64,000 nucleotides of DNA. Origin: Nitrosopumilus sp. Its GTDB lineage: Archaea > Thermoproteota > Nitrososphaeria > Nitrososphaerales > Nitrosopumilaceae. This document shows positions 8,328-63,509 of the stretch, one piece after another. The position numbers were made by a program, and so were the translations under genes. Each line of letters starts with the position of its first letter. Position 1 is the first letter of the stretch. The stretch is from positions 1,440,001-1,504,000 of the forward strand of contig OZ244732.1 in assembly GCA_965219345.1 (NCBI GenBank). Reading direction: 5' to 3'. The notes beneath the pieces were generated by a model. It was not told where the DNA came from. It made no database searches and worked only from the letters and a program-made list of their open reading frames with translations.

Positions 8328-8838
8328 TATATGTTATCTCAAAGGGTTCTGTGTAACCTTCGGGTGTTATTCTGTAGCCTTGTTTAGTGAGACATAAAAG
8401 CGCAACGGGGACTCGGTCTGACATTCAACCTTCTTGCAAGTTCTCATACTATGATCTAGACCTTTCGGAATTTGGTTCTGTCAGGTTGTCGAGGGGGACA
8501 AGTCAGGACTGGTTTCTCCATTCATCCTTGTCCAAAGCCGTCATCTGTTTAGAAGATACATTCCCACTTGGTGAAGGCAACATAGCTAGCTTCTTCAAGT
8601 GGGATAGAGTCACAAGCATTGCAAGTCAGCAATCCATGCCAATAGTCTTTGATGCCGGGAATCCCCGCTGCGGCCTTCATCCAATGGAAAATCACCACTG
8701 TACCGTGTGGCAGCAGCAGCAGCAACAGCAGCAGTAGCGAAGGCCGATACATAATGATGCCAGAGACAATGGCTACGCAGCCGGCATCCCTTTTAATTCA
8801 CAATGACGGATTTTTACAAAATAAATAAGAAAGGCTAG

Positions 8839-8934
8839 GGACAGAACACAGATACAGTCACAGTCTGTGGATGACAGCCAATGAGTGCTACTGCAGCAGA
8901 TAAGGACAGGACACAGATATAGTCACAGTCTGTG
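8839..8934. repeat. 31-bp direct repeat with 34-bp spacer
   Basis: GGACAG(A/G)ACACAGATA(C/T)AGTCACAGTCTGTG at 8839-8869 and 8904-8934. Confidence 0.9.
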
Positions 8935-24127: not shown

Positions 24128-24258
24128 GGATCAGAAATTTGAACAGCAGGGTCGCCAGCTCACTTTCGGACGGCAGGGCGATACAGGTCACTACCTTTGG
24201 ACAGCTAGGGATCAGTAATTTGAACAGCAGGGTCGCCGACTCACTTTCGGACGGCAGG
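24128..24258. repeat. 50-bp direct repeat with 31-bp spacer beside an IS6-like end
   Basis: 24128-24177 vs 24209-24258 (3 mismatches); the same words recur in the end-like sequence at 24296-24365. Confidence 0.85.
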
Positions 24259-42699: not shown

Positions 42700-42756
42700 T
42701 GCCGTTTTTGCGTCCTAAACCCGGGACATTTGGGTTAGTGTTGCGCTGTACATCTT

Positions 42757-42856
42757 GGGGTTTTCAGTGCCGTTACATTCGGGGTTTTCAGTGCCGTTAC
42801 ATTCGGGGTTTTCAGTGCCGTTACATTCGGGGTTTTCAGTGCCGTTACACTCGGGG
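42757..42856. repeat. tandem 24-bp repeat x4
   Basis: GGGGTTTTCAGTGCCGTTACATTC three times exact, fourth with one mismatch. Confidence 0.95.
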
Positions 42857-43310
42857 TCTGGTGTCACGTATGGAGATAGGCATTTTATGAAATTAGAGAC
42901 GATAGTGATTCCCAACTTGTTGACACAACTCAGTTTGAAGTCCGGATATTGGCAAGTCGGGAATCTTATCTGAATATGAACAGCTTTGCCAGTAATCTTA
43001 TCTTTGGTTTTCTCCATGCACTCATCAATAAAGGATTCTACAATATCCATTCCAGTTCCGGTTGTTCCACTAATTGCACAAATGGTACCAGGCCGTGTGC
43101 GGTAATAGTGCCATGCAGTAAATCATGCTCCTTTAGGCACATACAGTTAAAATGATAATCTTTCTGATCCATGTCTTTTAATTTTTCATTCTCTTTTTGG
43201 CGTGGAATCGTTGTTTGATTTCTTGATGCCTTATGACAATCAAGTAGAATTTCTAAACTGATCTGCTTGTCATTCAATAATGAAGGCAATTATTTCTTAT
43301 TCATAAATAC

Positions 43311-43603
43311 GGTTCCGGCAAATTCTGGTGATTTACACCATAAATCATCAGACATGGTTCTTCTCCGAAGTTTACTGCAACCGCATCATACCAACGTTCA
43401 GAAAATAAATCATCAGACATGGTTCTTCCCCGAACCGCTCTTTGAAATCCTGGGATAACCAGTACCTGTAACTTTCTCGAAATATCCATCACAACCCTGC
43501 TGTGATAACTCCCTTTGAGCCATCACATAAACTTGGCACAAAACTGCAAAGTGCAATTCAGAGAAGATCCATATTTCACTCATCACCAGAATTTGCCAGA
43601 TCC
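43311..43603. mobile_element. IS6-related MITE (293 bp)
   Basis: Ends GGTTCCGGCAAATTCTGGTGAT / ATCACCAGAATTTGCCAGATCC (20/22); subterminal AGAAGATCCATATTTC shared with the IS6 right end; related end at 62271-62321. Confidence 0.8.
43340..43434. repeat. 30-bp direct repeat with 35-bp spacer
   Basis: ATAAATCATCAGACATGGTTCTTC(T/C)CCGAA at 43340-43369 and 43405-43434. Confidence 0.9.
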
Positions 43604-47634: not shown

Positions 47635-47749
47635 TTGCATGGGGACTGAGCTGCCGTACCGCGTCTTGGCCTGCAACTGCTGCCACAGGGCCCGTGTGAT
47701 TCCTTGTGTTGTTTTGCTGATGATTTCCATGAGTCCTGTCAGCTGGAAT

Positions 47750-47823
47750 TTTATATATATGAGCATTAACTACCATTTTTTGTGAGCATCAACAGAATAA
47801 CGGGGGGGGGGGGGTGTGTGTGA
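47750..47823 (+). promoter_or_regulatory. TATA box, candidate leaderless GTG and G13 slippage tract
   Basis: TTTATATA at 47750, GTG at 47782, G13 at 47802-47814, in-frame TGA at 47821. Confidence 0.7.
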
Positions 47824-50800
47824 AAATAAAGAGATGGAGAGAATTTCCTTTGTTATTTTAATTTCCACGCTGATGTTGGCCTCTTTGTCCATTGTTCCGG
47901 CACATGCGGCGGAGCACCCGACAATCATCGCAGCTTCTGTGACCTCGGCTACCAGCATAGTCCTGACGTACAGCGAGAACGTTGACGTCAACGCCACGGA
48001 CGGCGCAGGATTTGGCCTCTCTGACGGGGGAAAAGTGACGGCAAACACCGATCCCGCGGGTTCGGGCAACACCATAACCCTTACGGTCTCCGGCATTACC
48101 AACACATCCGATACTCCGGATGTGACTTATATCGAATCTGATGGCACCGTGGCAGACGGCGCATCAAACCCGGCAGCGAGCCAGATCTTTACCGGCACAG
48201 TAGATGATGCGCCGCCAACCGTGTCCTCCATTGCAACTTCCAGTGCATCGACAATTGATATCGTACTGTCCGAGAACGTCACAGTAAACGGTGCGGCACC
48301 AGGAGACTTTGTGCTGTCTGGCACCATATCCACAGACCCGACCGTGACTGGAATCACGGCCGCTGCAGACACGGTCACCCTTTCCCTTAACGATACGCTT
48401 GATGGCGATGATGTCATCAGACTGGCATACACCAGAACCATGAGCAGCATAGATGACATTTCTCTCACGTCCTTTGTCGACTCTTTCTCAGTGAAGGCAA
48501 TAGAAGACGAAGATCCGCGAAGCCTGGCCTTCTCTGGTGACGGATATAAGATATTTATTTTGGATGGTATTGCCGATGCCGTACACGAGTACACGCTAAC
48601 CGCCCCATTTGACATATCCAATGCCGCCCCTGTCAGCTCTTTCTCAGTGGCATCAGAAGACGAAGATCCGCGAGGCCTGGCCTTCTCTGGCGACGGAACA
48701 AAGATGTTTGTCGTGGGTACTTTTGACGATGGTGATGTACACGAGTACGCGCTAGCCGTCCCCTTTAACATATCCGATGCCACCTCTGCCAATTCCTTCT
48801 CAACGAGATCACAAGACTCATACCCGCGAAGCCTGGCCTTCTCTGGCGACGGAACAAAGATGTTTGTCGTAGATAGTATTGGTAAGGACGTAAACGAGTA
48901 CACGCTAACCGCCCCATTTGACATATCCAATGCCACCTTTGTCGACTCTTTCTCACTGGTGCCATCAAACGTAACATTCCCACAGGGTTTGACCTTCTCT
49001 AATGACGGAACAAGGATGTTTGTTGTAGATAGTAATAGTAACGATGTACACGAGTACGCGCTAACCGCCCCCTTTGACGTATCGACCGCCACCTTTGTCG
49101 ACTCTTTCTCACTGGTGCCATCAAACATAGCATTCCCACAGGGTTTGACCTTCTCTAATGACGGAACAAGGATGTTTGTTACGGATTTTGATACCTCTGA
49201 CGTATACGAGTACGCGTTATCAAAGCCATTTACGCTATTCCCGCAGCCAAACTCCCTTGACAGCTTTGTGACAACCCTGGTCACAAACAACATTGTTCCG
49301 CCAACAATCACCGCGGCTGCCGTGACTTCCCTTACCGAGATAGTCCTGACGTACAGCGAGAACGTTGACGTCACAACCACAAACGGCGAAGGATTCACCC
49401 TATCTGTCGGAACGGTGACGGCAAACACCGATCCCGCGGGTTCGGACGACACCATAACCCTTACCGTCTCTGGCATCACAACATCCGATGCTCCAGTTAT
49501 AACTTACATCGCTCCACCTGGCACCGTGGTTGACGCGGAATCAAACCCGGCAGCAGACCAGACCTTTACCGGTACAACCGATGACGCGCCGCCAATCGTG
49601 TTCTCCATTGCAACTTCCAACATGTCGGCAATTGACATCGTGCTGTCCGAAGACGTCACAGTCAGCTCCGTGGCACCGGAAGACTTTGTGCTGTCCAGCA
49701 CCATATCCACAGACCCTACCGTGACCGGAATCACGGCCCTTAACGACACGGTCACCCTTTCCCTTAACGACACGCTTGCCCATAATGATGTCATCAGCCT
49801 GGCATACAACAAAGCCACGGGCAGCATAGATGACATTCTTGCTCCTCCGTCCTTTGTCGGCTCTTTCTCGGTGGCTTCACAAGACAACACTCCGACAGGC
49901 CTGGCCTTCTCTGATGACGGAACAAAGATGTTTGTCGTAGGTCTTACCGGCACTGACATAAACGAGTACGCGCTAACCGCCCCATTTGACATATCCAATG
50001 CCGACTTTGTCGACTCTTTCTCAGTAGGCTCACAAGAGGCATTCCCGGCAGACCTGGCCTTCTCTGCTAACGGAACAAAGATGTTTGTCATAGGTCTTGC
50101 CGGCAATGACATAAACAAGTACACGCTAACCGCCCCATTTGACGTATCCACTGCCTCCTTTGTCGACTCTTTCCAAGTATCTCAAACGGATATATCCCCG
50201 CGGAGCCTGGCCTTCTCCAACGACGGAACAAAGATGTTTGTTCTGGATATTTTCGGCGGTGACAGTTACGTAAACGAGTACACGCTAAATGGCCCCTTTG
50301 ACGTATCCACTTCCTCCTTTGTCGACTCTTTCTCAGTGGCATCACACGCACCATCCCCGCAGGGTCTGGCTTTCTCTGATGACGGAACCAAGATGTTTGT
50401 TTCGTCTTCTGACAACGATGCCGTAATCAAGTACGCATTAACCGCCCCCTTTGACGTGTCCACTGCCTCCTTTGTCGACTCTTTCTCCGTGTCATCACAG
50501 GGATTCGCCCTGACAGCCCTGGCCTTCTCTGATGACGGAACAAGGATGTTTGTTCTGGAAAATGACAGCAATGCCGTATACGAGTACGCGCTGTCAGAGC
50601 CATTTACGCTATTCCCGCAGCCAAACTCGCTTGCCAGCTTTGCGGCAATGTCGGTCACAAACAACATTGTACCGCTAGACACCGTTCCACCAACAATCAC
50701 CGCGGCTGCCGTGACCTCCCTTACCGAGATAGTCCTGACGTACAGCGAGGACATAGACGTCACAACCACAAACGGCGCGGGATTCACCCTATCTGTCGGA

Positions 50801-53800
50801 ACGGTGTCGGCAACCTCTGATCCCGCGGGTTCGGACGACACCATAACCCTTACCGTCTCTGGCATCACAACATCCGATACTCCAAACGTGACTTACACCG
50901 CATCCGACGGCTCCGTAGCAGACAGCGCATTAAACCAGGCAGCGAGCCAGACCTTTACCGGCACAACCGATAACGCGCCGCCAACCGTGCTCTCCATTGT
51001 AACTAACGACACATCAACAATTAACATCGTGCTGTCCGAAAACGTCACAATAAACGGTGCGGCACCGGAAGACTTTGCGCTGTCCAGCACCATATCCACA
51101 GACCCGGCCGTGACCGGAATCACCGCTGTTACAAACAACACGGTAGCCCTTGCCCTTGACGATACGCTTGACAGCAATGATGTCATCCTACTGGCATACA
51201 CCAAGACCACGGGCAGCATAGATGACATCCCTCTTCCGCCCCTTGACGGCTCCTTCCCAGTAGATATGCAAGACTCGGAATCAACTGGCCTGGCCTTCTC
51301 TAATGACGGAACAAGGATGTTTGTAGTGAGTACTGGTAGTGATAGCGATAACGATGCCGTACACCAGTACACACTAACCGCCGCCTTTGACGTGTCCACT
51401 GCTACCTTTGTCGACTCTTTCTCAGTAGGTTCACAAGACACATTCCCGTCAGGCCTGGCCTTCTCTGGTGACGGAACAAAGATGTTTGTTGTGGGTAGTT
51501 TCGACAATAACATAAACGAGTACACACTAACCACCGCCTTTGACGTGTCCACTGCCACCTCTGCCAACTCCTTCTCAGTATCCTCACAAGACATACTCCC
51601 GCTAGACATGGCCTTCTCTGCTGACGGAACAAAGATGTTTGTCTTGGGCGATGCTGGCGATGACATAAACGAGTACACGCTATCCGCCCCCTTTGACGTA
51701 TCGAATGTCGCCGGCACATCGGATGTCACCTTTGTCGACTCTTTCCCAGTGGCATCACAAGACAGATCCACGCAGGGCCTAACCTTCTCTGCTGACGGAA
51801 CGAGGATGTTTGTAGTGGGTAGTATCAACGGTGCCGTATACGGGTACGCACTAACCGCCGCCTTTGACGTGTCCACCGCCACCTTTGTCGACTCTTTCTC
51901 AGTGACATCACAAGACAGATTCCCGCGGGGCCTGGCCTTCTCTGCTGACGGAACGAGGATATTTGTCTTGGGTAGTGACAGCAAGAACGTACACCAGTAC
52001 GCGCTATCTGAACCATTTACGCTATTCCAACAGCCAAACTCCCTTGCCAGCTTTGCGGCAATGTCAGTCACAAACAACATTCCATCAGACACCACCCCGC
52101 CAACAATCACCGCAGCTGCCGTGACCTCCCTTACCGAGATAACCCTGACGTACAGCGAGAACATAGACGTCACAACCACAAACGGCGAAGGATTTACCCT
52201 ATCTGTCGGACAAGTGACGGCAAATACTGATCCCGACAATTCGGACGACACCATAACCCTTACCATCTCCGGCATCACCGCATCCGATGCTCCAGACGTG
52301 ATTTACACCGAGTCTGATGGCTCCGTGACAGACGGCGCATCAAACCCTGCAGCGAGCCAGACCTTTACCGGCACCACCCCGCTGCCGGATACTATTCCAC
52401 CAACAATCACCGCAGCTGCCGTGACCTCCCTTACCGAGATACTCCTGACGTACAGCGAGAACATAGACGTCACAACCACAAACGGCGAAGGATTCATCCT
52501 ATTTGTCGAAGGAACGGTGTCGGCAAACTCTGATCCCGACAATTCGGGCAACACCATAACACTTACCGTCTCCGGCATCACCGCATCCGATGCTCCAAAC
52601 GTGATTTACACCGAATCTGATGGCTCCGTGACAGACGGCGCATCAAACCCGGCAGCGAGCCAGACCTTTACCGGCACCACCCCGCTGCCGGACACCGTTC
52701 CACCAACAATCACCGCAGCTGCCGTGACCTCGGCTACCAGCATAACCCTGACGTACAGCGAGAACATAGACGTCACAACCACAAACGGCCAAGGATTCTC
52801 CCTCTCCGTCGGACAGGTGACGACAAACACCGATCCCGCCGGTTCGGCAGACACCATAACCCTTACGGTCTCCGGCATCCCCTCTACCTCTCATAGACCG
52901 GATGTGACTTACGCCGCATCTGATGGCACCGTGACAGACAGCGCGTCAAACCCGGCAGCAAGCCAGACCTTTACCGGCACAGTAGATGATGCGCCGCCAA
53001 CCGTGTCTTCCATCGAAACTTCCAGCACATCAACAAATGCAATTGATGTCGTGCTGTCCGAAGACGTTACAGTCAACTCTGTAGAATCCAGGGACTTTGT
53101 ACTGTCTGGCACCATATCCACAAACCCGGCCTTGACCGCAGTCACGGTAGCTGCCGACACGCTCACCCTTCACCTTAACGCTGCGCTTGCTCATGATGAT
53201 GTCATCAATCTGGCATACACCAAAACCACGGGCAGCATAGATGACATTGCTCTCCCGTCCTTTGTCGACTCTTTCCCAGTGGCTTCACGGGATACATTCC
53301 CGTCAGGCCTGGCCTTCTCCAACGACGGAACAAAGATGTTTGTCGCAGGTGATAGCACCGATTCCGTACACCAGCACGTGCTGTCCGCCCCCTTTGACGT
53401 ATCCACTTCCAACTTTGTCCGCTCTTTCTCAATAAACGCACAAAGCACATCCCCGCAGGGTCTGGCCTTCTCCAACGACGGAACAAAGATGTTTGTCACA
53501 GATAGTTTCAAAAGTACCGTAAACGAGTACACGCTGTCCGCCCCCTTTAACATATCCAATGCCACCTTTGTCCAATCTACCTCCCTGGCTCTAAATGCTT
53601 TACAGCCACACGGTCTGGCCTTCTCTACTAACGGAACACTGATGTTTGTCGCAAGTGATTTCAACGATAGCGTATACAATTACTTGCTGTCCACCCCCTT
53701 TGATCTGTCGTCTTACATCCCTATCGACTCTTTCTCAGTGGCATCACAAGATGTAGATCCACGGCACCTGGCCTTCTCCAACGACGGAACAAAGATGTTT

Positions 53801-56800
53801 GTCACAGGTGATGCTAGCGATAGCGTACACGAGTACACACTATCCCGCCCCTTTGACACACTCACTGCCGACTTTGACAGCTCCTTCTCCGTGTTCTCAC
53901 AGGATACATCCCCGACAGGCCTGGCCTTCTCCAATGACGGAATAAGGATGTTTGTCGTGGGTGATTTCGGCAATGACATAAACGAGTACATACTGCCAAA
54001 GCCATTTGCGCTATTCCCACAGCCAAACTCCCTTGCCAGCTTTGCGGCAACCTTGGTCACAAACAACGTTGCACCGACACCGCCACCCGATGACATTGAT
54101 CCCTCGATAGATACCACCCTGCCAACAATCACCGCAGCTGCCGTGACCTCCCTTACCGAGATACTCCTGACGTACAGCGAGGACATAGACGTCACAACCA
54201 CGGACGGCGAAGGATTCGCCCTTTCCACCGGAACGGTGCATGCAAACACCGATCCCGCCGGTACGGCAGACACCATAACACTTACCGTCTCCGGCATTAC
54301 CGCATCCGATGCTCCAGACGTGATTTACACCGAGTCTGATGGCAACGTGGAAGATACCGCGTCAAACGAGGCAGCGAGCCAGACCTTTACCGGCACCACC
54401 CAGCTGCCGGACACTATTCCACCAACAATCACCGCAGCTTCCGTGACCTCGGCTACCAGCATAACCCTGACGTACAGCGAGAACATAGACGTCACAACCA
54501 CAAACGGCGCGGGATTCTCCCTTTCCACCGGGCAAGTGTCGGCAAACACCGATCCCGCCGGTTCGGACGACACCATAACCCTTACCGTCTCTGGCATCAC
54601 AACATCCGATGCTCCAGCTATAACTTACATCGCTCCACCTGGCACCGTGGTTGACGCGGAATCAAACCCGGCAGCAGACCAGACCTTTACCGGCACAACC
54701 GATGACGCGCCTCCAACCGTGTCCTCCATTGCAACTGCCAGCACATCAACAATTAACATCGTGCTGTCCGAAAACGTCACAATAAACGGTGCGGCACCGG
54801 AAGACTTTGTGCTGTCCAGCACCATATCCACAGACCCGGCCGTGACCGGAATCACCGCTGTTACAAACAACACGGTAGCCCTTGCCCTTGACGATACGCT
54901 TGACAGCAATGATGCCATCCTCCTGGCATACACCAAGACCACGGGCAGCATAGATGACATCCCTCTTCCGCCCCTTCTCAGCTCCTTCCCAGTAGGTATA
55001 CAAGGCTCGGGATCAAACGGCATGGCCTTCTCTAATGACGGAACAAGGATGTTTGTAGTGAGTAGTGGTAGTGGTAGCGATAACGATGCCGTACACCAGT
55101 ACACACTAACCGCCCCCTTTGACGTATCCACTGCCACCTTTGTCGACTCTTTCTCAGTGGCATCACAAGACACAGTACCGCAAGGCCTGGCCTTCTCTGG
55201 TGACGGAACAAAGATGTTTGTTGTGGGTGGTTTCGACAATAACATAAACGAGTACACACTATCCGCCGCCTTTGACGTGTCCACTGCCACCTCTGCCAAC
55301 TCCTTCTCAGTGGCATCACAAGACACAGCCCCGCTAGACATGGCCTTCTCTGCTGACGGAACAAAGATGTTTGTCTTGGGCGGTGCTGGCGATGCCGTAT
55401 ACGAGTACACGCTAACCGCCCCCTTTGACGTATCGAATGTCGCCGGCACATCAGATGTCACCTTTGTCGACTCTTTCCCAGTGGCATCAGAAGACACAGC
55501 CCCGACAGGCCTGGCCTTCTCTGGTAACGGAACTAGGATGTTCGTTGTAGGTAATTTTAACGATGCCGTATACGAGTACGCACTAACCGCCCCCTTTGAC
55601 GTGTCCACTGCCACCTCTGCCAACTCCTTCTCAGTATCCTCACAGGACCAATCCCCGACAGGCCTGGCCCTCTCTGCTGACGGAACGAGGATATTTGTCT
55701 TGGGTGATAACAGCGAGAACGTACACCAGTACGCGCTATCTGAACCATTTACGTTATTCCTACAGCCAAACTCCCTTGCCAGCTTTGCGGCAATGTCAGT
55801 CACAAACAACATTGCATCACCACCCGCTGAAATTGATCCCTCGATAGATACCACCCCACCAACAATCATCGCAGCTGCCGTGACCTCCCTTACCGAGATA
55901 CTCCTGACGTACAGCGAGGACATAGACGTCACAACCACGGACGGCACGGGATTCGCCCTCTCCGTCGGAACGGTGCATGCAAACACCGATCCCGCCGGTT
56001 CGAACGACACCATAACCCTTACCGTCTCCGGCATCGCCGCATCCTATACTCCAGCTATAAGTTATACCACATCTGATGGCACCGTGACAGATACCGCGTC
56101 AAACCAGGCAGCAAACCAGGTCTTTGCCGGCACCACCCCGCTACCCGATACCACCCCACCAACAATCACCGCAGCTGCCGTGACCTCGGCTACCAGCATA
56201 GTCCTGACGTACAGCGAGAACATAGACGTCACAACTACAGACGGCGAAGGATTCGCCCTCTCTGATGGAGGAACGGTGTCGGCAAACTCTGATCCCGCCA
56301 GTACGGACGACACCATAACCCTTACCGTCTCTGGCATCACAGCATCCGATGCTCCAAACGTGATTTACACCGAGTCTGATGGCTCCGTGACAGACAGCGC
56401 ATCAAACCCGGCAGCGAACCAGACCTTTACCGGCACCACCCCGCTGCCGGACACCGTTCCACCGGAAATCACCGCAGCTGCCGTGACCTCGGCTATCAGC
56501 ATAGTCCTGACGTACAGCGAGAACATAGACGTCAGCACCACAAACGGCCAAGGATTCTCCCTCTCCGTCGGACAGGTGACGACAAACACCGATCCCGCCG
56601 GTTCGGCAGACACCATAACCCTTACGGTCTCCGGCATCCCCTCTACCTCTCATAGACCGGATGTGACTTACGCCGCATCTGATGGCACCGTGACAGACAG
56701 CGCGTCAAACCCGGCAGCAAGCCAGACCTTTACCGGCACAACCGATGACGCGCCGCCAACGGTATCTTCCATCGAAACTTCCAGCACATCAACAAATGCA

Positions 56801-59800
56801 ATTGACGTCGTGCTGTCCGAAAACGTTACAATAAACGGTGCGACACCGGAAGACTTTGCGCTGTCCGGCACCCTATCCACATACCAGCGCGTGACCGGAA
56901 TCACGGCCCTTGCCGACACGGTAACCCTTACCCTCAATGATACGCTTGACAGTGATGATGTCATCAGCCTGGCATACACCAAAGGCACTGGCAGCATAGA
57001 TGACATTTCTCTCACGTCCTTTGTTGATTCTTTCTCAACAGTTTTCCAAGATATATCCCCACAGGGTTTGGCATTCTCTGGTGACGGAACAAAGATGTTT
57101 GTCGCAGGTGGTGATACCGATACCGTATACGAGTACGCACTAGCTGTCCCCTTTGACGTGTCCACTGTCCGCTACAATGGCAACTCCTTCTCAGTGGCTT
57201 CACAGGACACATCCCCACAGGGTTTGGCCTTCTCTAATGACGGTACCAGGATGTTTGTCGCAGGTAATTTCGGCAATGACGTAAACGAGTACACGCTAAC
57301 CGCCCCCTTTGACGTGTCCACTGTCACCTTTGTCGACTCTTTCTCAGTGGCTTCACAAGACGAATCCCCACAGGGTTTGGCCTTCTCCAATGACGGTACT
57401 AGGATGTTTGTCGCAGGTCGCGTTAGCAATGCCGTATACGAGTACGCGCTGACCGCCCCCTTTGACGTGTCCACTGCCAGCTATGGCAGCTCCTTCCCAG
57501 TAGGTTCACAGGACACATCCCCACAGGGCCTGGCCTTCTCCAACGACGGAACAAGGATGTTTGTCGCAGGTGATATTGGCAATGACGTAAACGAGTACAC
57601 ACTAACCTCCCCCTTTGACGTATCCACTGCCACCTTTGTCGACTTTTTCTCACTGGCGACATCAAGCGCATCATCCCCGCAGGGTTTGGCCTTCTCCAAT
57701 GACGGTACCAGGATGTTTGTTGCGGATTTTGATACCTTTGGCGTACACGAGTACGCGCTGTCAAAGCCATTTGCGCTATTCCCACAGCCAAACTCGCTTG
57801 CCAGCTTTGCGGCAACCTTGGTCACAAACAACATTGCATCACCACCCGCTGAAATTGATCCCTCGATAGATACCACCCCACCAACAATCACCGCAGCTGC
57901 CGTGACCTCCCTTACCGAGATACTCCTGACATACAGCGAGAACATAGACGTCACAACCACGGACGGCACGGGATTCGCCCTTTCCACCGGAACGGTGCAT
58001 GCAAACACCGATCCCGCCAGTACGGCAGACACCATAACCCTTACCGTCTCCGGCATCGCCGCATCCGATACTCCAGCTATAAGTTATACCACATCTGATG
58101 GCACCGTGACAGATACCGCGTCAAACCAGGCAGCAAACCAGGTCTTTGCCGGCACCACGGCGCTGCCGGACACCATTCCGCCAACAATCACCGCAGCTGC
58201 CGTGACCTCCCTTACCGAGATACTCCTGACGTACAGCGAGAACATAGACGTCACAACCACGGACGGCGCAGGATTCACCCTCTCTGACGGAGGAACGGTG
58301 TCGGCAAACTCTGATCCCGCCAGTACGGACGACACCATAACCCTTACCGTCTCTGGTATCACCACAGCATCCGATGCTCCAAACGTGATTTACACCGAGT
58401 CTGATGGCTCCGTGACAGATACCGCGTCAAACCCGGCAGCAAACCAGACCTTTACCGGCACCACCCCGCTGCCGGACACTGTTCCACCGGAGATCACCGC
58501 AGCTGCCGTGACCTCGGCTACCAGCATAGTCCTGACGTACAGCGAGAACATAGACGTCACAACCACAGACGGCGCAGGATTCACCCTCTCTGACGGACAA
58601 GTGACGGCAAACACCGATCCCGCCGGTTCGGACGACACCATAACGCTTGCCGTCTCCGGCATCACAGCATTCGATGCTCCAAACGTGATTTACACCGAGT
58701 CTGATGGCTCCGTGACAGATACCGCGTCAAACCAGGCCGAAGACCAGACCTTTGCCGGCACCACGGCGCCGCCGGACACTATTCCACCAACAATCACCGC
58801 AGCTGCCGTGACCTCCCTTACCGAGATACTCCTGACATACAGCGAGAACATTGACGTCAGCACCACGAACGGCGCAGGATTCGCCCTCTCTGACGGAGGA
58901 ACAGTGTCGGCAAACACCGATCCCGACAATTCGGGCAACACCATAATCCTTACCGTCTCTGGCATCACCACAGCTGATACTCCAGCCATAACCTACACCG
59001 CTCCACCTGGCACCGTGGTTGACAACGCGTCAAACCCGGCAGCAGACCAGACCTTTGCCGGCACCACCCCGCTACCCGATACTATTCCACCAAGAATCAC
59101 CGCAGCTGCCGTGACCTCCCTTACCGAGATACTCCTGACGTACAGCGAGAACATTGACGTCACAGCCACGAACGGCGCAGGATTCGCCCTCTCTGACGGA
59201 GGAACAGTGTCGGCAAACACCGATCCCGACAATTCGGGCAACACCATAATCCTTACCGTCTCTGGCATCACCACAGCTGATACTCCAGCCATAACCTACA
59301 CCGCTCCACCTGGCACCGTGGTTGACAACGCGTCAAACCCGGCAGCAGACCAGACCTTTGCCGGCACCACCCCGCTACCCGATACTATTCCACCAAGAAT
59401 CACCGCAGCTGCCGTGACCTCCCTTACCGAGATACTCCTGACATACAGCGAGAACATAGACGTCACAGCCACGAACGGCGAAGGATTCGCCCTCTCTGAC
59501 GGAGGAACAGTGTCGGCAAACACCGATCCCGCCGGTACGGGCAACACCATAATCCTTACCGTCTCTGGTATCACCACAGCATCCGATGCTCCAAACGTGA
59601 TTTACACCGAGTCTGACGGCACCGTGACAGATACCGCGTCAAACCCTGCAGCGAGCCAGACCTTTGCCGGCACCACCCCGCTACCCGATACTATTCCACC
59701 AACAATCACCGCAGCTGCCGTGACCTCCCTTACCGAGATAGTCCTGACGTACAGCGAGAACATAGACGTCACAGCCACAAACGGCCAAGGATTCGCCCTC

Positions 59801-62056
59801 TCTGACGAAGGAACGGTGTCGGCAAACACCGATCCCGACAATTCGGGCAACACCATAATCCTTACCGTCTCCGGCATTACCGACACATCCGATGCTCCAA
59901 ACGTGATTTACACCGAGTCTGACGGCACCGTGACAGATACCGCATCAAACCCTGCAGCGAGCCAGACCTTTACCGGCACCACCCCGCTGCCGGACACTAT
60001 TCCACCAACAATCACTGCGGCTTCTATGACCTCGGCTACCAACATGACCCTGACATACAGCGAGAACATAGACGTCACAACCACGAACGGCGCAGGATTC
60101 GCCCTCTCTGACGGAGGAACAGTGTCGGCAAACACCGATCCCGACAATTCGGGCAACACCATAATCCTTACCGTCTCCGGCATTACCGACACATCCGATA
60201 CTCCAGCCATCACCTATACCGCTCCACCTGGCACCGTGGTTGACAACGCGTCAAACCAGGCAGCAAACCAGACCTTTACCGGTACAACCGATAACGCGCC
60301 GCCAACCGTATCCTCCATTGCAACTGCCGGCACATCAACAATTGATATCGTGCTGTCCGAAGACGTCACAATAAACGGTGCGGCACCCGAAGACTTTGCG
60401 CTGTCCGGCACCATATCCACGGACCCAGTCGTAACCGGAATCACCGCCATTGCCGCCGCTGCTGCCAACACGGTCACCCTTGCCCTTGACGATACGCTTG
60501 ATCATGACGATGTCATCCTCCTGGCATACACCAAGACCACGGGCAGCATAGATGACATTCCTGCCGCTTCTGTCATCCTTGACACCTCCTTCTCCGTGTC
60601 CTCACAGAGCGACTTCCCGACAGGCCTAACCTTCTCTGCCAACGGAACAAAGATGTTTGTTCTAAGTGATGGTGACGATGCCGTATACGAGTACGCGCTA
60701 ACCGCCCCCTTCGACGTGTCTTCCGCCACCTTTACCAGATCTGACGTGTCTTCCGCCACCTTTACCAACTCTTCCTCAATGCCACAGGACACACTCCCGA
60801 CAGGCCTAACCTTCTCTGCCAACGGAACAAGGATGTTTGTCGTAGGTGATAGTCAAAACGTAATCGAGTACACGCTAACCGCCCCCTTTGACCTGTCTGC
60901 TGCTGTCACCTTTGCCAGCTTCTTCTCAGTGGCATCGCAAGTACAATCCCCGACAGGCCTAACCTTCTCTGCCAACGGAACAAAGATGTTTGTCGTGGAT
61001 GACAATGACGATGCCGTATACGAGTACACATTAACCGCCCCCTTTGACGTATCCACTGCCGTCCCTGCCGGCTCCTTCTCCATATCCTCACAGGACACAT
61101 TGCCATTTGGCATAACCTTCTCCGATGACGGTACCAGGATGTTTGTCGTAGGTAATTCTAACGGCAAGGTAAACGAGTACGCATTAACCACCGCCTTTGC
61201 CGTATCCACTGCCTCCTTTGCCGGCTCTTTTTCAACAGTTCCACAAGAGACGTTCCCATATGACCTGGCCTTCTCCGGTGACGGTACCACGATGTTCGTC
61301 GTAGGCATTAATAGCGATGCCGTATACCAGTACGCGCTGCCCGAACCGTTTACGCTATTCCCACAGCCAAACTCGCTTGCCAGCTTTGCGGCAGCCCCAG
61401 TCACAAACAACAACATTGCACCGCCCGTTGCGGATGATACGGAGGAACCAGAACCTGAACCGGAAAGAAAGCCCGAAAAGAGTGGTAGAGGCGGTGGTGG
61501 CGGCGGCCGTACCGGCGTCAGTCCAGCCGGAGGAGGAGAACCCCTGTCCAACATTGAGCTTTACGGCGTTTCATGGAACTGTGAGACGGGCCTAATCAGA
61601 ATAATAACCGGTGATGACTCGCCTACGCTGTCGGTATCCGTCAGAACCTCCATTGGCGGCCTGGCCGAGGCCAGCCTGTCCGATGAAAGAATACCCGGCA
61701 GCAAGGTATTCACATCCCATATGGGGCCTTCCGAGACATACCTTGGCATACTGCTGGTGGACATAGCGGGACGGGACAGCAACATTAGAAACGAAAGCAT
61801 CAGCATAAAACAGTGCGTTGGCGAGAAGACATATGATGGTGATGGTGATGGTGATGGTGATGGTGATGGTGACGCATCCGATACGCCAAAAAAGTCCCAG
61901 TCCAGTAGTAGCAGCAGCAGCGCATCCAAAGGCGACATGGAATGCAAGCCGGGCTTTACGCTGGTCAAGAACCTGAGAGATGATCTTGCCTGCCTCCTTG
62001 ACCGCTCGGTACAGCCGCTGATGGAGCGCGGCTGGGTAGAATCAATAGTCGGATAA
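47816..62056 (+). CDS. giant repetitive surface protein/adhesin (Ig/SwmB-like repeats and seven beta-propeller modules)
   Basis: 4746 aa; signal peptide MERISF..PAHA; about 19 PTITAAAVTS repeats; 7 x 5 blades with GLAFSxDGTKMFV; C-terminal C..G..L...AC...LMERGW motif. Confidence 0.93.
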   Translation: MCENKEMERISFVILISTLMLASLSIVPAHAAEHPTIIAASVTSATSIVLTYSENVDVNATDGAGFGLSDGGKVTANTDPAGSGNTITLTVSGITNTSDTPDVTYIESDGTVADGASNPAASQIFTGTVDDAPPTVSSIATSSASTIDIVLSENVTVNGAAPGDFVLSGTISTDPTVTGITAAADTVTLSLNDTLDGDDVIRLAYTRTMSSIDDISLTSFVDSFSVKAIEDEDPRSLAFSGDGYKIFILDGIADAVHEYTLTAPFDISNAAPVSSFSVASEDEDPRGLAFSGDGTKMFVVGTFDDGDVHEYALAVPFNISDATSANSFSTRSQDSYPRSLAFSGDGTKMFVVDSIGKDVNEYTLTAPFDISNATFVDSFSLVPSNVTFPQGLTFSNDGTRMFVVDSNSNDVHEYALTAPFDVSTATFVDSFSLVPSNIAFPQGLTFSNDGTRMFVTDFDTSDVYEYALSKPFTLFPQPNSLDSFVTTLVTNNIVPPTITAAAVTSLTEIVLTYSENVDVTTTNGEGFTLSVGTVTANTDPAGSDDTITLTVSGITTSDAPVITYIAPPGTVVDAESNPAADQTFTGTTDDAPPIVFSIATSNMSAIDIVLSEDVTVSSVAPEDFVLSSTISTDPTVTGITALNDTVTLSLNDTLAHNDVISLAYNKATGSIDDILAPPSFVGSFSVASQDNTPTGLAFSDDGTKMFVVGLTGTDINEYALTAPFDISNADFVDSFSVGSQEAFPADLAFSANGTKMFVIGLAGNDINKYTLTAPFDVSTASFVDSFQVSQTDISPRSLAFSNDGTKMFVLDIFGGDSYVNEYTLNGPFDVSTSSFVDSFSVASHAPSPQGLAFSDDGTKMFVSSSDNDAVIKYALTAPFDVSTASFVDSFSVSSQGFALTALAFSDDGTRMFVLENDSNAVYEYALSEPFTLFPQPNSLASFAAMSVTNNIVPLDTVPPTITAAAVTSLTEIVLTYSEDIDVTTTNGAGFTLSVGTVSATSDPAGSDDTITLTVSGITTSDTPNVTYTASDGSVADSALNQAASQTFTGTTDNAPPTVLSIVTNDTSTINIVLSENVTINGAAPEDFALSSTISTDPAVTGITAVTNNTVALALDDTLDSNDVILLAYTKTTGSIDDIPLPPLDGSFPVDMQDSESTGLAFSNDGTRMFVVSTGSDSDNDAVHQYTLTAAFDVSTATFVDSFSVGSQDTFPSGLAFSGDGTKMFVVGSFDNNINEYTLTTAFDVSTATSANSFSVSSQDILPLDMAFSADGTKMFVLGDAGDDINEYTLSAPFDVSNVAGTSDVTFVDSFPVASQDRSTQGLTFSADGTRMFVVGSINGAVYGYALTAAFDVSTATFVDSFSVTSQDRFPRGLAFSADGTRIFVLGSDSKNVHQYALSEPFTLFQQPNSLASFAAMSVTNNIPSDTTPPTITAAAVTSLTEITLTYSENIDVTTTNGEGFTLSVGQVTANTDPDNSDDTITLTISGITASDAPDVIYTESDGSVTDGASNPAASQTFTGTTPLPDTIPPTITAAAVTSLTEILLTYSENIDVTTTNGEGFILFVEGTVSANSDPDNSGNTITLTVSGITASDAPNVIYTESDGSVTDGASNPAASQTFTGTTPLPDTVPPTITAAAVTSATSITLTYSENIDVTTTNGQGFSLSVGQVTTNTDPAGSADTITLTVSGIPSTSHRPDVTYAASDGTVTDSASNPAASQTFTGTVDDAPPTVSSIETSSTSTNAIDVVLSEDVTVNSVESRDFVLSGTISTNPALTAVTVAADTLTLHLNAALAHDDVINLAYTKTTGSIDDIALPSFVDSFPVASRDTFPSGLAFSNDGTKMFVAGDSTDSVHQHVLSAPFDVSTSNFVRSFSINAQSTSPQGLAFSNDGTKMFVTDSFKSTVNEYTLSAPFNISNATFVQSTSLALNALQPHGLAFSTNGTLMFVASDFNDSVYNYLLSTPFDLSSYIPIDSFSVASQDVDPRHLAFSNDGTKMFVTGDASDSVHEYTLSRPFDTLTADFDSSFSVFSQDTSPTGLAFSNDGIRMFVVGDFGNDINEYILPKPFALFPQPNSLASFAATLVTNNVAPTPPPDDIDPSIDTTLPTITAAAVTSLTEILLTYSEDIDVTTTDGEGFALSTGTVHANTDPAGTADTITLTVSGITASDAPDVIYTESDGNVEDTASNEAASQTFTGTTQLPDTIPPTITAASVTSATSITLTYSENIDVTTTNGAGFSLSTGQVSANTDPAGSDDTITLTVSGITTSDAPAITYIAPPGTVVDAESNPAADQTFTGTTDDAPPTVSSIATASTSTINIVLSENVTINGAAPEDFVLSSTISTDPAVTGITAVTNNTVALALDDTLDSNDAILLAYTKTTGSIDDIPLPPLLSSFPVGIQGSGSNGMAFSNDGTRMFVVSSGSGSDNDAVHQYTLTAPFDVSTATFVDSFSVASQDTVPQGLAFSGDGTKMFVVGGFDNNINEYTLSAAFDVSTATSANSFSVASQDTAPLDMAFSADGTKMFVLGGAGDAVYEYTLTAPFDVSNVAGTSDVTFVDSFPVASEDTAPTGLAFSGNGTRMFVVGNFNDAVYEYALTAPFDVSTATSANSFSVSSQDQSPTGLALSADGTRIFVLGDNSENVHQYALSEPFTLFLQPNSLASFAAMSVTNNIASPPAEIDPSIDTTPPTIIAAAVTSLTEILLTYSEDIDVTTTDGTGFALSVGTVHANTDPAGSNDTITLTVSGIAASYTPAISYTTSDGTVTDTASNQAANQVFAGTTPLPDTTPPTITAAAVTSATSIVLTYSENIDVTTTDGEGFALSDGGTVSANSDPASTDDTITLTVSGITASDAPNVIYTESDGSVTDSASNPAANQTFTGTTPLPDTVPPEITAAAVTSAISIVLTYSENIDVSTTNGQGFSLSVGQVTTNTDPAGSADTITLTVSGIPSTSHRPDVTYAASDGTVTDSASNPAASQTFTGTTDDAPPTVSSIETSSTSTNAIDVVLSENVTINGATPEDFALSGTLSTYQRVTGITALADTVTLTLNDTLDSDDVISLAYTKGTGSIDDISLTSFVDSFSTVFQDISPQGLAFSGDGTKMFVAGGDTDTVYEYALAVPFDVSTVRYNGNSFSVASQDTSPQGLAFSNDGTRMFVAGNFGNDVNEYTLTAPFDVSTVTFVDSFSVASQDESPQGLAFSNDGTRMFVAGRVSNAVYEYALTAPFDVSTASYGSSFPVGSQDTSPQGLAFSNDGTRMFVAGDIGNDVNEYTLTSPFDVSTATFVDFFSLATSSASSPQGLAFSNDGTRMFVADFDTFGVHEYALSKPFALFPQPNSLASFAATLVTNNIASPPAEIDPSIDTTPPTITAAAVTSLTEILLTYSENIDVTTTDGTGFALSTGTVHANTDPASTADTITLTVSGIAASDTPAISYTTSDGTVTDTASNQAANQVFAGTTALPDTIPPTITAAAVTSLTEILLTYSENIDVTTTDGAGFTLSDGGTVSANSDPASTDDTITLTVSGITTASDAPNVIYTESDGSVTDTASNPAANQTFTGTTPLPDTVPPEITAAAVTSATSIVLTYSENIDVTTTDGAGFTLSDGQVTANTDPAGSDDTITLAVSGITAFDAPNVIYTESDGSVTDTASNQAEDQTFAGTTAPPDTIPPTITAAAVTSLTEILLTYSENIDVSTTNGAGFALSDGGTVSANTDPDNSGNTIILTVSGITTADTPAITYTAPPGTVVDNASNPAADQTFAGTTPLPDTIPPRITAAAVTSLTEILLTYSENIDVTATNGAGFALSDGGTVSANTDPDNSGNTIILTVSGITTADTPAITYTAPPGTVVDNASNPAADQTFAGTTPLPDTIPPRITAAAVTSLTEILLTYSENIDVTATNGEGFALSDGGTVSANTDPAGTGNTIILTVSGITTASDAPNVIYTESDGTVTDTASNPAASQTFAGTTPLPDTIPPTITAAAVTSLTEIVLTYSENIDVTATNGQGFALSDEGTVSANTDPDNSGNTIILTVSGITDTSDAPNVIYTESDGTVTDTASNPAASQTFTGTTPLPDTIPPTITAASMTSATNMTLTYSENIDVTTTNGAGFALSDGGTVSANTDPDNSGNTIILTVSGITDTSDTPAITYTAPPGTVVDNASNQAANQTFTGTTDNAPPTVSSIATAGTSTIDIVLSEDVTINGAAPEDFALSGTISTDPVVTGITAIAAAAANTVTLALDDTLDHDDVILLAYTKTTGSIDDIPAASVILDTSFSVSSQSDFPTGLTFSANGTKMFVLSDGDDAVYEYALTAPFDVSSATFTRSDVSSATFTNSSSMPQDTLPTGLTFSANGTRMFVVGDSQNVIEYTLTAPFDLSAAVTFASFFSVASQVQSPTGLTFSANGTKMFVVDDNDDAVYEYTLTAPFDVSTAVPAGSFSISSQDTLPFGITFSDDGTRMFVVGNSNGKVNEYALTTAFAVSTASFAGSFSTVPQETFPYDLAFSGDGTTMFVVGINSDAVYQYALPEPFTLFPQPNSLASFAAAPVTNNNIAPPVADDTEEPEPEPERKPEKSGRGGGGGGRTGVSPAGGGEPLSNIELYGVSWNCETGLIRIITGDDSPTLSVSVRTSIGGLAEASLSDERIPGSKVFTSHMGPSETYLGILLVDIAGRDSNIRNESISIKQCVGEKTYDGDGDGDGDGDGDASDTPKKSQSSSSSSSASKGDMECKPGFTLVKNLRDDLACLLDRSVQPLMERGWVESIVG
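61834..61872 (+). repeat. (GATGGT)n microsatellite encoding poly(Asp-Gly)
   Basis: GATGGT x6 followed by GAC. Confidence 0.9.
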
Positions 62057-62321: not shown

Positions 62322-62535
62322 GGTGTTGCCGTTGTTGCAGAAATTATTCTTGTATCTGACATTTTTGTCCTGATTGAGAAGATGGTTTTTTCTTAAAAAG
62401 TCAAAATAATTGAGAATTAGTGTTATGTTGCGTTAGTGGAGCTTGACTCATAATTTTTACACTAGAAAGTTGGCGTGAGTTTTCGACAAATCAAAATAGA
62501 TGTAAAGATAGGGTGGTAGATAAAAAGTTAGGTGA

Positions 62536-63509
62536 TTATCGATCATTCACCACCAGTACATAATCAGGCAATAATGAGAAAGTATCTTCATCTCTATTGT
62601 TGTATCTCCATGCCATCTCCTTGATGTACAACAGAAACTTTTCAGAACTGACACCGTGATGCTTTGCCATTCTCTCTTTTGCAAAACTCCAAAAATCCTC
62701 AGTTCCGTTGATGCAGACATCGCCTTTTCCAAACATCCTACCGTGATCAGCTGACAAATGACGATAACCATGGAACATCAACGAATCATGATCTTTCCAC
62801 CTGTCTGTATACGCAATGCCTCCTTTCCTTACTTTCTTGACGGTTCCGGCAAGAAGTGTACTGACTTTCACATCTGTGACAATCTCAACGTGAACCTTTC
62901 CCTTTCTCTCCAAAATTCCAAATACAATTGTCCTGTTTTTGGCACCGCGTCCGCGATTTCCCTTTCCTTTGCCTCCAAAATACGCCTCATCAGCCTCAAT
63001 TTTGCCCTTTGGTTTCCTGTCTGACCTTGCAAGATGGCATGATATGGAGTGGTGCATACAGTCAAATGCATTTAGTGCGGTAGGATGACTGACATCTGCT
63101 TCCCTTGCTGCACGCAGGATGAAAACCAGGTAACGAAATCTGTCCTCTTCGTAGGATGACTGACATCTGCTTCCCTTGCTGCACGTCTTGCACTAATCCT
63201 AGGATCAAAGAGTTTGGTTAGAATCAACCATTTTGTAAAACCAATATTGATTGTATCCAACCATGTTCCGCCAAACGGCCTGTAATCTATTTTACAATCT
63301 TTGCACCTTAACTTTCCTCTTAATATGATGTAATACTTTTTGGAACCGCATGAGGTACGATGAACTGTATTTTTCTTTTGGAATTCCTTACAGGGAAATT
63401 CCAATGCGGCTGATTTGTTGTAAGTTATTTTGGATAGTTCAATCAGGTTGATTGTTTTTCCTAATAATTGTGTGAAATCAGTTGGCGGTAACAGGTTTAC
63501 AATCACCAA
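62536..63509 (-). mobile_element. IS1595-family transposase split by a 71-bp duplication-insertion
   Basis: Degenerate Zn ribbon, EADEAYFGG, YTD, INGTEDFWS, EMAWRYN; deleting 63115-63185 fuses the two ORFs. Confidence 0.9.
63080..63185. repeat. perfect 35-bp direct repeat with 36-bp spacer
   Basis: GTAGGATGACTGACATCTGCTTCCCTTGCTGCACG at 63080-63114 and 63151-63185. Confidence 0.97.

Follow-up and report, generated by a model that had tools for sequence, protein, structure and literature searches.

Spacer-sized insertions within duplicated target sequences on a Nitrosopumilus chromosome: probable off-target integration by a type I-G CRISPR adaptation module

Integration of spacers at sites other than the CRISPR array has been reported for the type I-E system of Escherichia coli, in which off-target events give rise to neo-CRISPR loci (Nivala, Shipman and Church, Nat Microbiol 2018, as described in papers that cite it). 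In the passages of those papers that deal with the subject, the events are said to fall elsewhere in the genome, where they may spawn new arrays, and to favour, in E. coli, sites near IHF-like motifs. Off-target integration in E. coli was shown with overproduced Cas1-Cas2; for natural genomes only circumstantial evidence, in two other species, is mentioned in the citing literature. Cas1-Cas2 of Pyrococcus furiosus also integrates off target in vitro, at a subset of repeat-like sites, with the spacing internal to the repeat setting the second cut (PMC6698737, from the passages available), and archaeal histones reduce off-target integration (PMC13748974, likewise in part). In the sections available for Methanosarcina barkeri, the type I-G Cas4/1-Cas2 integrates the non-PAM end first, to the leader side, and the PAM end to the spacer side after cleavage by Cas4 (PMC10504553). 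Ectopic spacer acquisition has been described, in the excerpts available, for arrays of Streptococcus thermophilus and S. mutans (PMC7999890, PMC5338259, PMC8265633).

The window considered here is the whole stretch of 64,000 nucleotides that was analysed from a Nitrosopumilus chromosome (G000:C1:1440001-1504000). In it the gene of an IS1595-family transposase is interrupted by a unit in which two copies of a 35 bp stretch of its own coding sequence stand on either side of a 36 bp insert. It is very probable, in our judgement, that this unit, at 63080-63185, is an off-target (ectopic) spacer integration by the type I-G Cas4/Cas1-Cas2 of the host, the catalysis by this enzyme being an inference. 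The proposal rests on the structure of the unit and the fact that its empty allele exists, on an intact integrase in the host with a 36 nt ruler, on the sister events elsewhere on the chromosome and the host-derived inserts found among these, and on the signature at the ends of the targets.

As far as the E. coli type I-E work is represented in the papers citing it, the likeness is that spacer-sized DNA lies at non-CRISPR chromosomal sites. Unlike that case, the present one arose naturally and is fixed in the genome of an archaeon, without overproduction of an integrase or a supply of oligonucleotides, and it would involve a type I-G Cas4/Cas1 fusion with a 36 nt ruler, at least 20 events, six inserts of host origin, and a signature that does not resemble the repeat ends. 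Both this case and that of P. furiosus, in the part of the latter available, concern archaeal integrases at non-CRISPR sites, there with plasmids in the test tube and here with inherited, gene-breaking chromosomal insertions. The M. barkeri type I-G proteins have the same architecture as those of this host, but the work on them concerns integration into the array, and the passages searched contain no mention of off-target events (PMC10504553). In the streptococci, judging from the excerpts of those papers, ectopic acquisition takes place away from the leader-proximal repeat but inside a true CRISPR repeat, whereas in the present case an unrelated stretch of coding DNA was hit. The literature searched, which excluded subscription journals and supplements, yielded no account of off-target spacer events occurring naturally across a genome. 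The kind of event is known from E. coli; a natural genome-wide case with an archaeal type I-G system and a second size class appears to be new.

The earlier note, made from the sequence alone, had described a perfect 35 bp duplication around a 36 bp insert, and this is borne out by a repeat finder, which gives a start-to-start spacing of 71 for the two copies (Table 1); the flanking bases beyond the copies mismatch at both sides, which sets the length of the duplication at exactly 35 bp. Its view of the repeat as a duplicated part of the coding sequence of an IS1595-type transposase also holds, the C-terminal ORF matching PF12762 at 3.9e-29 (102 bits against a cut-off of 27). When one 35 bp copy and the 36 bp insert are removed in silico, the two ORFs are joined as the note had claimed, in a single open frame of 304 aa, and the sequence across the joint reads as it was given there. 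The unit represents a net gain of 71 bp, by which the frame is shifted and the transposase split in two; the N-terminal ORF continues through one copy of the repeat, is out of frame over the insert and the other copy, and then meets a stop. In a third-order Markov shuffle of the chromosome the number of exact 20-mer direct repeats at distances of 30-200 is 0, and the structure at 63080-63185 is thus not attributable to chance. Nor does it meet the criteria for a genuine CRISPR array, being two copies of transposase coding sequence with one insert only. Neither strand of the 35-mer folds to any notable extent (z +0.5 and +0.7). As for the limits of the IS element, homology with the paralogues starts sharply near 62531 and the BLAST match to them stops near 63509; a 7 nt inverted match at the ends has been seen by eye only.

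Table 1. Positions in the window of the interrupted transposase gene and of the unit within it.
Feature	Positions	Strand	Remarks
First copy of duplicated 35 bp target	63080..63114		Transposase coding sequence; begins GTAG (+ strand), CGTG (- strand)
36 bp insert	63115..63150		Read as an ectopically integrated spacer; single occurrence in the genome
Second copy of duplicated 35 bp target	63151..63185		100% identical to the first
Transposase N-terminal fragment	63072..63509	-	145 aa; no Pfam hit of its own
Transposase C-terminal fragment	62536..63057	-	173 aa; DDE_Tnp_IS1595 domain
IS1595-family element	62531..63506	-	Limits approximate; about 905 bp without the 71 bp insertion

It had been suggested that other IS1595 copies be compared for the empty allele, and this allele is indeed present in them. 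There are four copies of the IS on C1, 83-94% identical, the three others lying near 788.7, 1592.7, and 1662.0 kb, with a PF12762-type transposase score of 3.2e-25 for a paralogue. In alignment, all three of these paralogues have the 35-mer once and no insert, with an overlap between the two pieces of the BLAST match to the interrupted copy that equals the repeat in length. IS copies of congeners (G009, G015, G048 with two copies, and G051) likewise lack the insert and give an overlap of 33-37 nt. Between the two copies of the repeat there is no difference, against 83-94% identity among the IS paralogues, and the event is on this ground inferred to be recent. Empty sites are not confined to the transposase gene. 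The site at C1:1504869, 1.7 kb from it, is free of insert in the orthologue in G018, and for five further sites there are insert-free, single-copy paralogues.

Reads lacking the insertion would, according to the earlier note, refute its reading. Contigs of four public runs, built from 31-letter words, were compared with the window over 62700-63500. In runs X1 and X4, which belong to one study, a 96 nt piece spans 63085-63180 without differences and at a depth like that of the flanks. In run X6, from another study, a 151 nt piece spans 63131-63281, again without differences; it takes in the final 20 nt of the insert together with the second copy and the flank. In run X5, 63105-63320 is without coverage. 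Since insert and repeat are found in contigs from the runs of two studies, the structure is not an artefact of this one assembly, although one of the public runs may be the source of the assembly itself. The insertion is to that extent confirmed, but the contigs are blind to a coexisting empty allele, the repeat being 35 nt long and the empty allele containing no new 31-letter word. No joint was reported for the four runs, which for this reason carries no weight, and a mixed population is not excluded.

The genome is of 1.91 Mb in two contigs, with 36% GC and ribosomal proteins of archaeal type. Its sole array, at C1:1641728-1653821, has 164 repeats of 36 nt, of which 163 are identical, with spacers of 35-40 nt in 150 of the 163 cases and a period of 71-76. 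The remark in the earlier note that the sizes of the unit are typical of CRISPR can accordingly be sharpened, as they fit the array of the host itself. Upstream of the array there are open frames for a Cas4/Cas1 fusion (561 aa; 754 bits against a cut-off of 560) and for Cas2 (95 aa), and downstream, on the other strand, for Csb2, Csb1/Cas7g, Cas8g1/Csx17 (563 bits), and Cas3g (732 bits). All six proteins (Cas4g/Cas1g, Cas2, Csb2, Csb1/Cas7g, Cas8g1/Csx17, and Cas3g) exceed their NCBIfam cut-offs, and the system is, as predicted from its genes, a complete one of type I-G. The Cas4g/Cas1g protein is the only full-length Cas1 of the genome. The CRISPR repeat folds into a hairpin with a 7 bp stem (z -3.4), and its variants in congeners preserve the stem through paired changes.

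No protospacers of the array spacers were found in phage records for the whole array; a PAM could not be derived and the stray spacers could not be oriented. Short matches of the array queries in congeners were considered as protospacers and rejected, these being solitary or foreign copies of the repeat. The congener G017 has, at C1:1535280-1535480, a solitary 36 nt type I-G repeat with one mismatch and no array within 201 nt. In the congener G160 there is, at C1:2066080-2066280, an array with a different repeat, of 29-30 nt, in which one spacer consists of a piece of the type I-G repeat and adjoining bases; there, one CRISPR system has taken up a spacer from the array of another. The second contig of the present genome, C2 (41,585 bp), has the GC of the chromosome, and matches no array spacer or stray insert over more than 14 nt.

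The whole genome was scanned for isolated exact direct repeats of at least 24 nt with a period of 30-200 and with nothing similar within 400 bp. There are 39 such repeats on C1, 23 of them with a period of 70-76, and in 20 of the latter the repeat is 33-38 nt long (36 in nine, 37 in four, 38 in three, 35 in two, and 33 in two) and the insert 32-40 nt. The repeats of 37-38 are explained by chance identity of one or two bases at the edges. In the case of C1:123645, for example, the true unit is 36 + 34, as shown by its host protospacer. In the three other units of period 70-76 the repeats reach 35-37 nt if one to three mismatches are allowed. All the inserts are distinct, the sole exception among 29 candidate units being one unit present in two paralogous loci.

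Frames are restored on removal of the unit at C1:1519410 (666 aa), 426365 (261 aa), 601718 (252 aa), and 123645 (199 aa), while many other stray units are in intergenic DNA or DNA with short frames. The period is divisible by three in only four of the 20 perfect units, and there is therefore no sign of selection for in-frame events. The sites are mildly clustered, six of 22 adjacent gaps being below 10 kb where 2.6 would be expected (P = 0.026), and the surroundings of the transposase site are rich in IS elements, transposases of the rve, IS240-like, and DDE_Tnp_1 kinds being found at distances of up to 15 kb. Both the clustering and the IS-rich setting probably reflect survival in dispensable DNA.

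A stray unit at C1:1638625-1638733 is about 0.9 kb upstream of the cas4/cas1 gene. The host protospacer of the stray insert at C1:915773, at C1:1636412-1636448, precedes the array by about 5 kb. Not only the targets of stray inserts but also their sources can be close to the CRISPR locus. The window also contains an open frame of 4746 aa (47816-62056) with many repeated modules, a repeat family to which the insert at C1:333443 has a match. A short way upstream of this frame (C1:1487735, which is window position 47735), and upstream of paralogous giant genes, there are further occurrences of the target hit by the stray unit at C1:92343. Other repeats in the window are a 50 nt direct repeat (94%) with a spacing of 81 at 24128-24258 and a 24 bp tandem of about five copies at 42733-42876.

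The targets have a signature in common. Of 46 ends, read on the attacked strand, 25 have G at +4 from the junction, where 18% would be expected (p = 3e-8). In units with a repeat of 35-36 it is present in 18 of 26 ends, and all 13 of these units have it on at least one end, five of them on both; for random 36-mers the probability of at least one such end is 0.33. The transposase site has G at +4 from both junctions. There are weaker trends for T at +2, for A at +6 and +7, and, on the outer side of the junction, for an adjacent G or C. Such a signature, with two-fold symmetry and fixed spacing, is in keeping with an enzyme that integrates by two equivalent active sites and has a ruler. The k-mer motif GTAGGA was also considered, being found at three of 56 ends against 0.07 expected, but it is lost on correction for about 5,000 words; of the end motifs, only the position-specific G at +4 is solid.

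Comparison of the target with the CRISPR repeat and leader of the host, another of the checks put forward at the outset, gives a divided answer. Over the targets as a whole there is a small excess, relative to random sites, of likeness to leader and repeat (mean 15.25 against 13.73 matched positions, P = 0.003), but the canonical CRISPR repeat has T at +4 on both strands, and G at +4 is absent from both of its ends. The G at +4 may be a preference intrinsic to the active site, expressed in the absence of contacts with leader and repeat.

The earlier note had called the 36 bp insert foreign. Foreign origin has not been demonstrated. In the genome the 36-mer has a single occurrence, with up to three mismatches allowed. 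A blastn search of the 36-mer, as the note had advised, found no match in 50,697 phage records, and exact scans, which miss diverged protospacers, found none in the viral, genome, and metagenome contig collections. Sister inserts, on the other hand, are in part copied from the host: six of the 23 core inserts match elsewhere on C1 over their full length, five exactly and one with one mismatch, and a seventh matches a repeated gene family. A foreign source for the 36-mer remains plausible, although unproven. None of the 163 array spacers has a full-length chromosomal match, the only two matches found being of 18-19 nt, and the difference between six of 23 and 0 of 163 is significant (Fisher P = 1.9e-6). 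Our inference is that host DNA is captured, and that it is purged from the working array by autoimmunity while it is tolerated at silent stray units. The GC is 0.423 for inserts and 0.420 for array spacers, with 0.36 for the genome. The six host protospacers have no consistent flanking motif; by eye, TT-N precedes three of the six in one orientation or the other.

Similar units are present in another genome with the same repeat. The congener G051 shares the repeat exactly (121 copies seen), and its one Cas1 is of type I-G; in the 1.109 Mb of it that were scanned, eight of 15 isolated repeats have a period of 70-76, and five of these have repeats of 33-39 nt. Clean 36 + 37 units are found at 148375 and 416383, while two of the five units form one paralogous family of unclear origin. 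In two Cas1-less congeners there is no isolated repeat of the strict class, out of 17 in 792 kb of G018 and out of three in 396 kb of G007. These controls are partial (0.79 and 0.40 Mb), and the GC of G018 is 54%. There are borderline cases: two units of G018 have a period of 71, with exact repeats of 28 nt and of 32 nt, and one of G007 has a period of 72, with a repeat of 29. These could be relics of a lost system or due to chance.

A second size class is made up of seven isolated repeats on C1 with a period of 63-69 and an exact repeat of 24-32 nt. The genome also contains a second Cas1, in the form of a 77 aa C-terminal fragment at C1:1123013-1123243 (PF01867, 1.1e-20). The identity of this fragment is 54% with a Cas1 of G160, and only 28% with the host Cas1g. 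The relative in G160 is about 12 kb from an array of period 66 with a repeat of 29-30 nt, and a solitary 29 nt repeat of the type found in that array, with two mismatches, follows within a few bases of the fragment in the present genome (region C1:1123013-1123277). Fragment and solitary repeat together are, on this sequence evidence, the remnant of a second, decayed CRISPR-Cas system, the relative of which in G160 is intact. Given this remnant, and the period of 66 in G160, the class of period 63-69 would fit a second adaptation module, now decayed, with a shorter ruler.

Two examples of this class are in the window. At 8836-8934 there are two 34 nt copies (91% alike) with a start-to-start spacing of 65 and an unrelated insert. 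The same target carries a perfect 36 + 38 unit at C1:404166, and is empty (single) in a third paralogue at C1:333045, so that it would have been hit twice, once by each size class. The repeated sequence contains a near-palindrome, and seems to be a target that is hit repeatedly. At 43340-43434 there are two 30 nt copies with one mismatch, a start-to-start spacing of 65, and an insert of 35 nt, in a target that spans the start of a multi-copy gene. There are about ten paralogous sites; the one at C1:1826938 has the same unit inverted, the one at C1:1824848 has a different insert at an overlapping position, with a period of 68, and several are single.

By off-target integration, the unit in the transposase gene would have arisen as follows. 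The type I-G Cas4/Cas1 fusion with Cas2 would capture a 36 bp prespacer and join each of its 3' ends to a different strand of the IS1595 transposase gene, at points 35 bp from one another, where the proper targets are the two ends of the first CRISPR repeat. The 35 bp between the points of attack would then be duplicated as the gaps were filled, leaving target copy, spacer, and target copy in that order. There is no hairpin in the duplicated sequence and no leader, from which it is inferred that the unit gives no working crRNA. Counted against this explanation are the length of the duplication, which is 35 and not 36 bp, with a range of 33-38 in the class, and the fact that no experiment ties the enzyme to these sites.

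Insertion by a different integrase, either that of the second, decayed adaptation module or a casposase-like Cas1, might be argued from the 77 aa Cas1 fragment, adjoining as it does a solitary repeat of another type, and from the end motif, which is unlike the I-G repeat ends. However, a repeat of 29-30 nt and a period of 66, as in the related system of G160, suit the 63-69 class and not the 35/36/71 geometry of the transposase unit. In addition, the second Cas1 is only a fragment, yet the transposase repeats are perfectly identical and the event therefore apparently recent, and G051, with a single Cas1 of type I-G, still has units of 36/37/73. Casposon target duplications are about 14-15 bp. 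We regard a different integrase as improbable.

A Cas-independent origin in repair, with a short tandem duplication and filler copied or captured during break repair or template switching, would agree with the six sister inserts that were copied from distant parts of the chromosome, since templated insertions can have such sources. Such repair would not be expected to give 20 units with a duplication of 33-38 bp and an insert of 32-40 bp at the period of the array, nor a second class matching the geometry of a second CRISPR system, nor a position-specific G at +4 on both ends, and units of the strict class are absent from both Cas1-less controls, as far as these were scanned; the case for repair is slighter still than that for another integrase. 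The situation of the site in an IS-rich stretch might lead one to think of a small mobile element that left a footprint or a target-site duplication, but the inserts of the 29 candidate units, apart from the paralogous copies, share no sequence, and similar units are found in G051. We know of no IS family with a target duplication of 35-38 bp. An artefact of assembly, which may be taken with this last alternative, is opposed by the agreement of the contigs from the runs of two studies, and the pair together can hardly be entertained. Off-target integration by the host type I-G module is the explanation retained.

If stray spacers are inserted on the chromosome, some might go on to form arrays. 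In a search for at least three evenly spaced copies outside the array, only tandem coding repeats and one 73 bp tandem of 2.4 copies, with identical inserts, were found, and the same scan gave no locus with two different stray spacers. The 73 bp tandem, at C1:1432749-1432926, is perfect and consists of a 32 nt repeat, a 41 nt insert, the repeat, the same insert, and the repeat again; it may be a stray unit that has been amplified by unequal recombination.

For annotation, insertions of 70-76 bp of this kind create pseudogenes, and CRISPR finders could call them tiny arrays. A wider proposal can be made, as a speculation that we hold to be possible but less likely than not, namely that in this archaeal lineage CRISPR adaptation modules are chronic, sequence-biased insertional mutagens of their own chromosome, that the stray units form an unselected archive of the DNA captured by the integrase, host-derived in about a quarter of the inserts but in none of the array spacers, in which the two classes represent two systems, one of them lost, and that a stray unit can begin to grow into an array, as at C1:1432749-1432926, where the origin of a CRISPR array would then be visible in nature. 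If off-target integration is the right reading of the units, the target preference and the ruler of the type I-G integrase could be read from natural events, and unselected and selected spacer repertoires could be compared, as in the six of 23 inserts against 0 of 163 spacers that are host-derived. It would also mean a hidden cost of adaptive immunity, in genes broken by stray spacers such as the transposase and the 666 aa frame at C1:1519410. Finally, stray integration would offer a way for new arrays to come into being.
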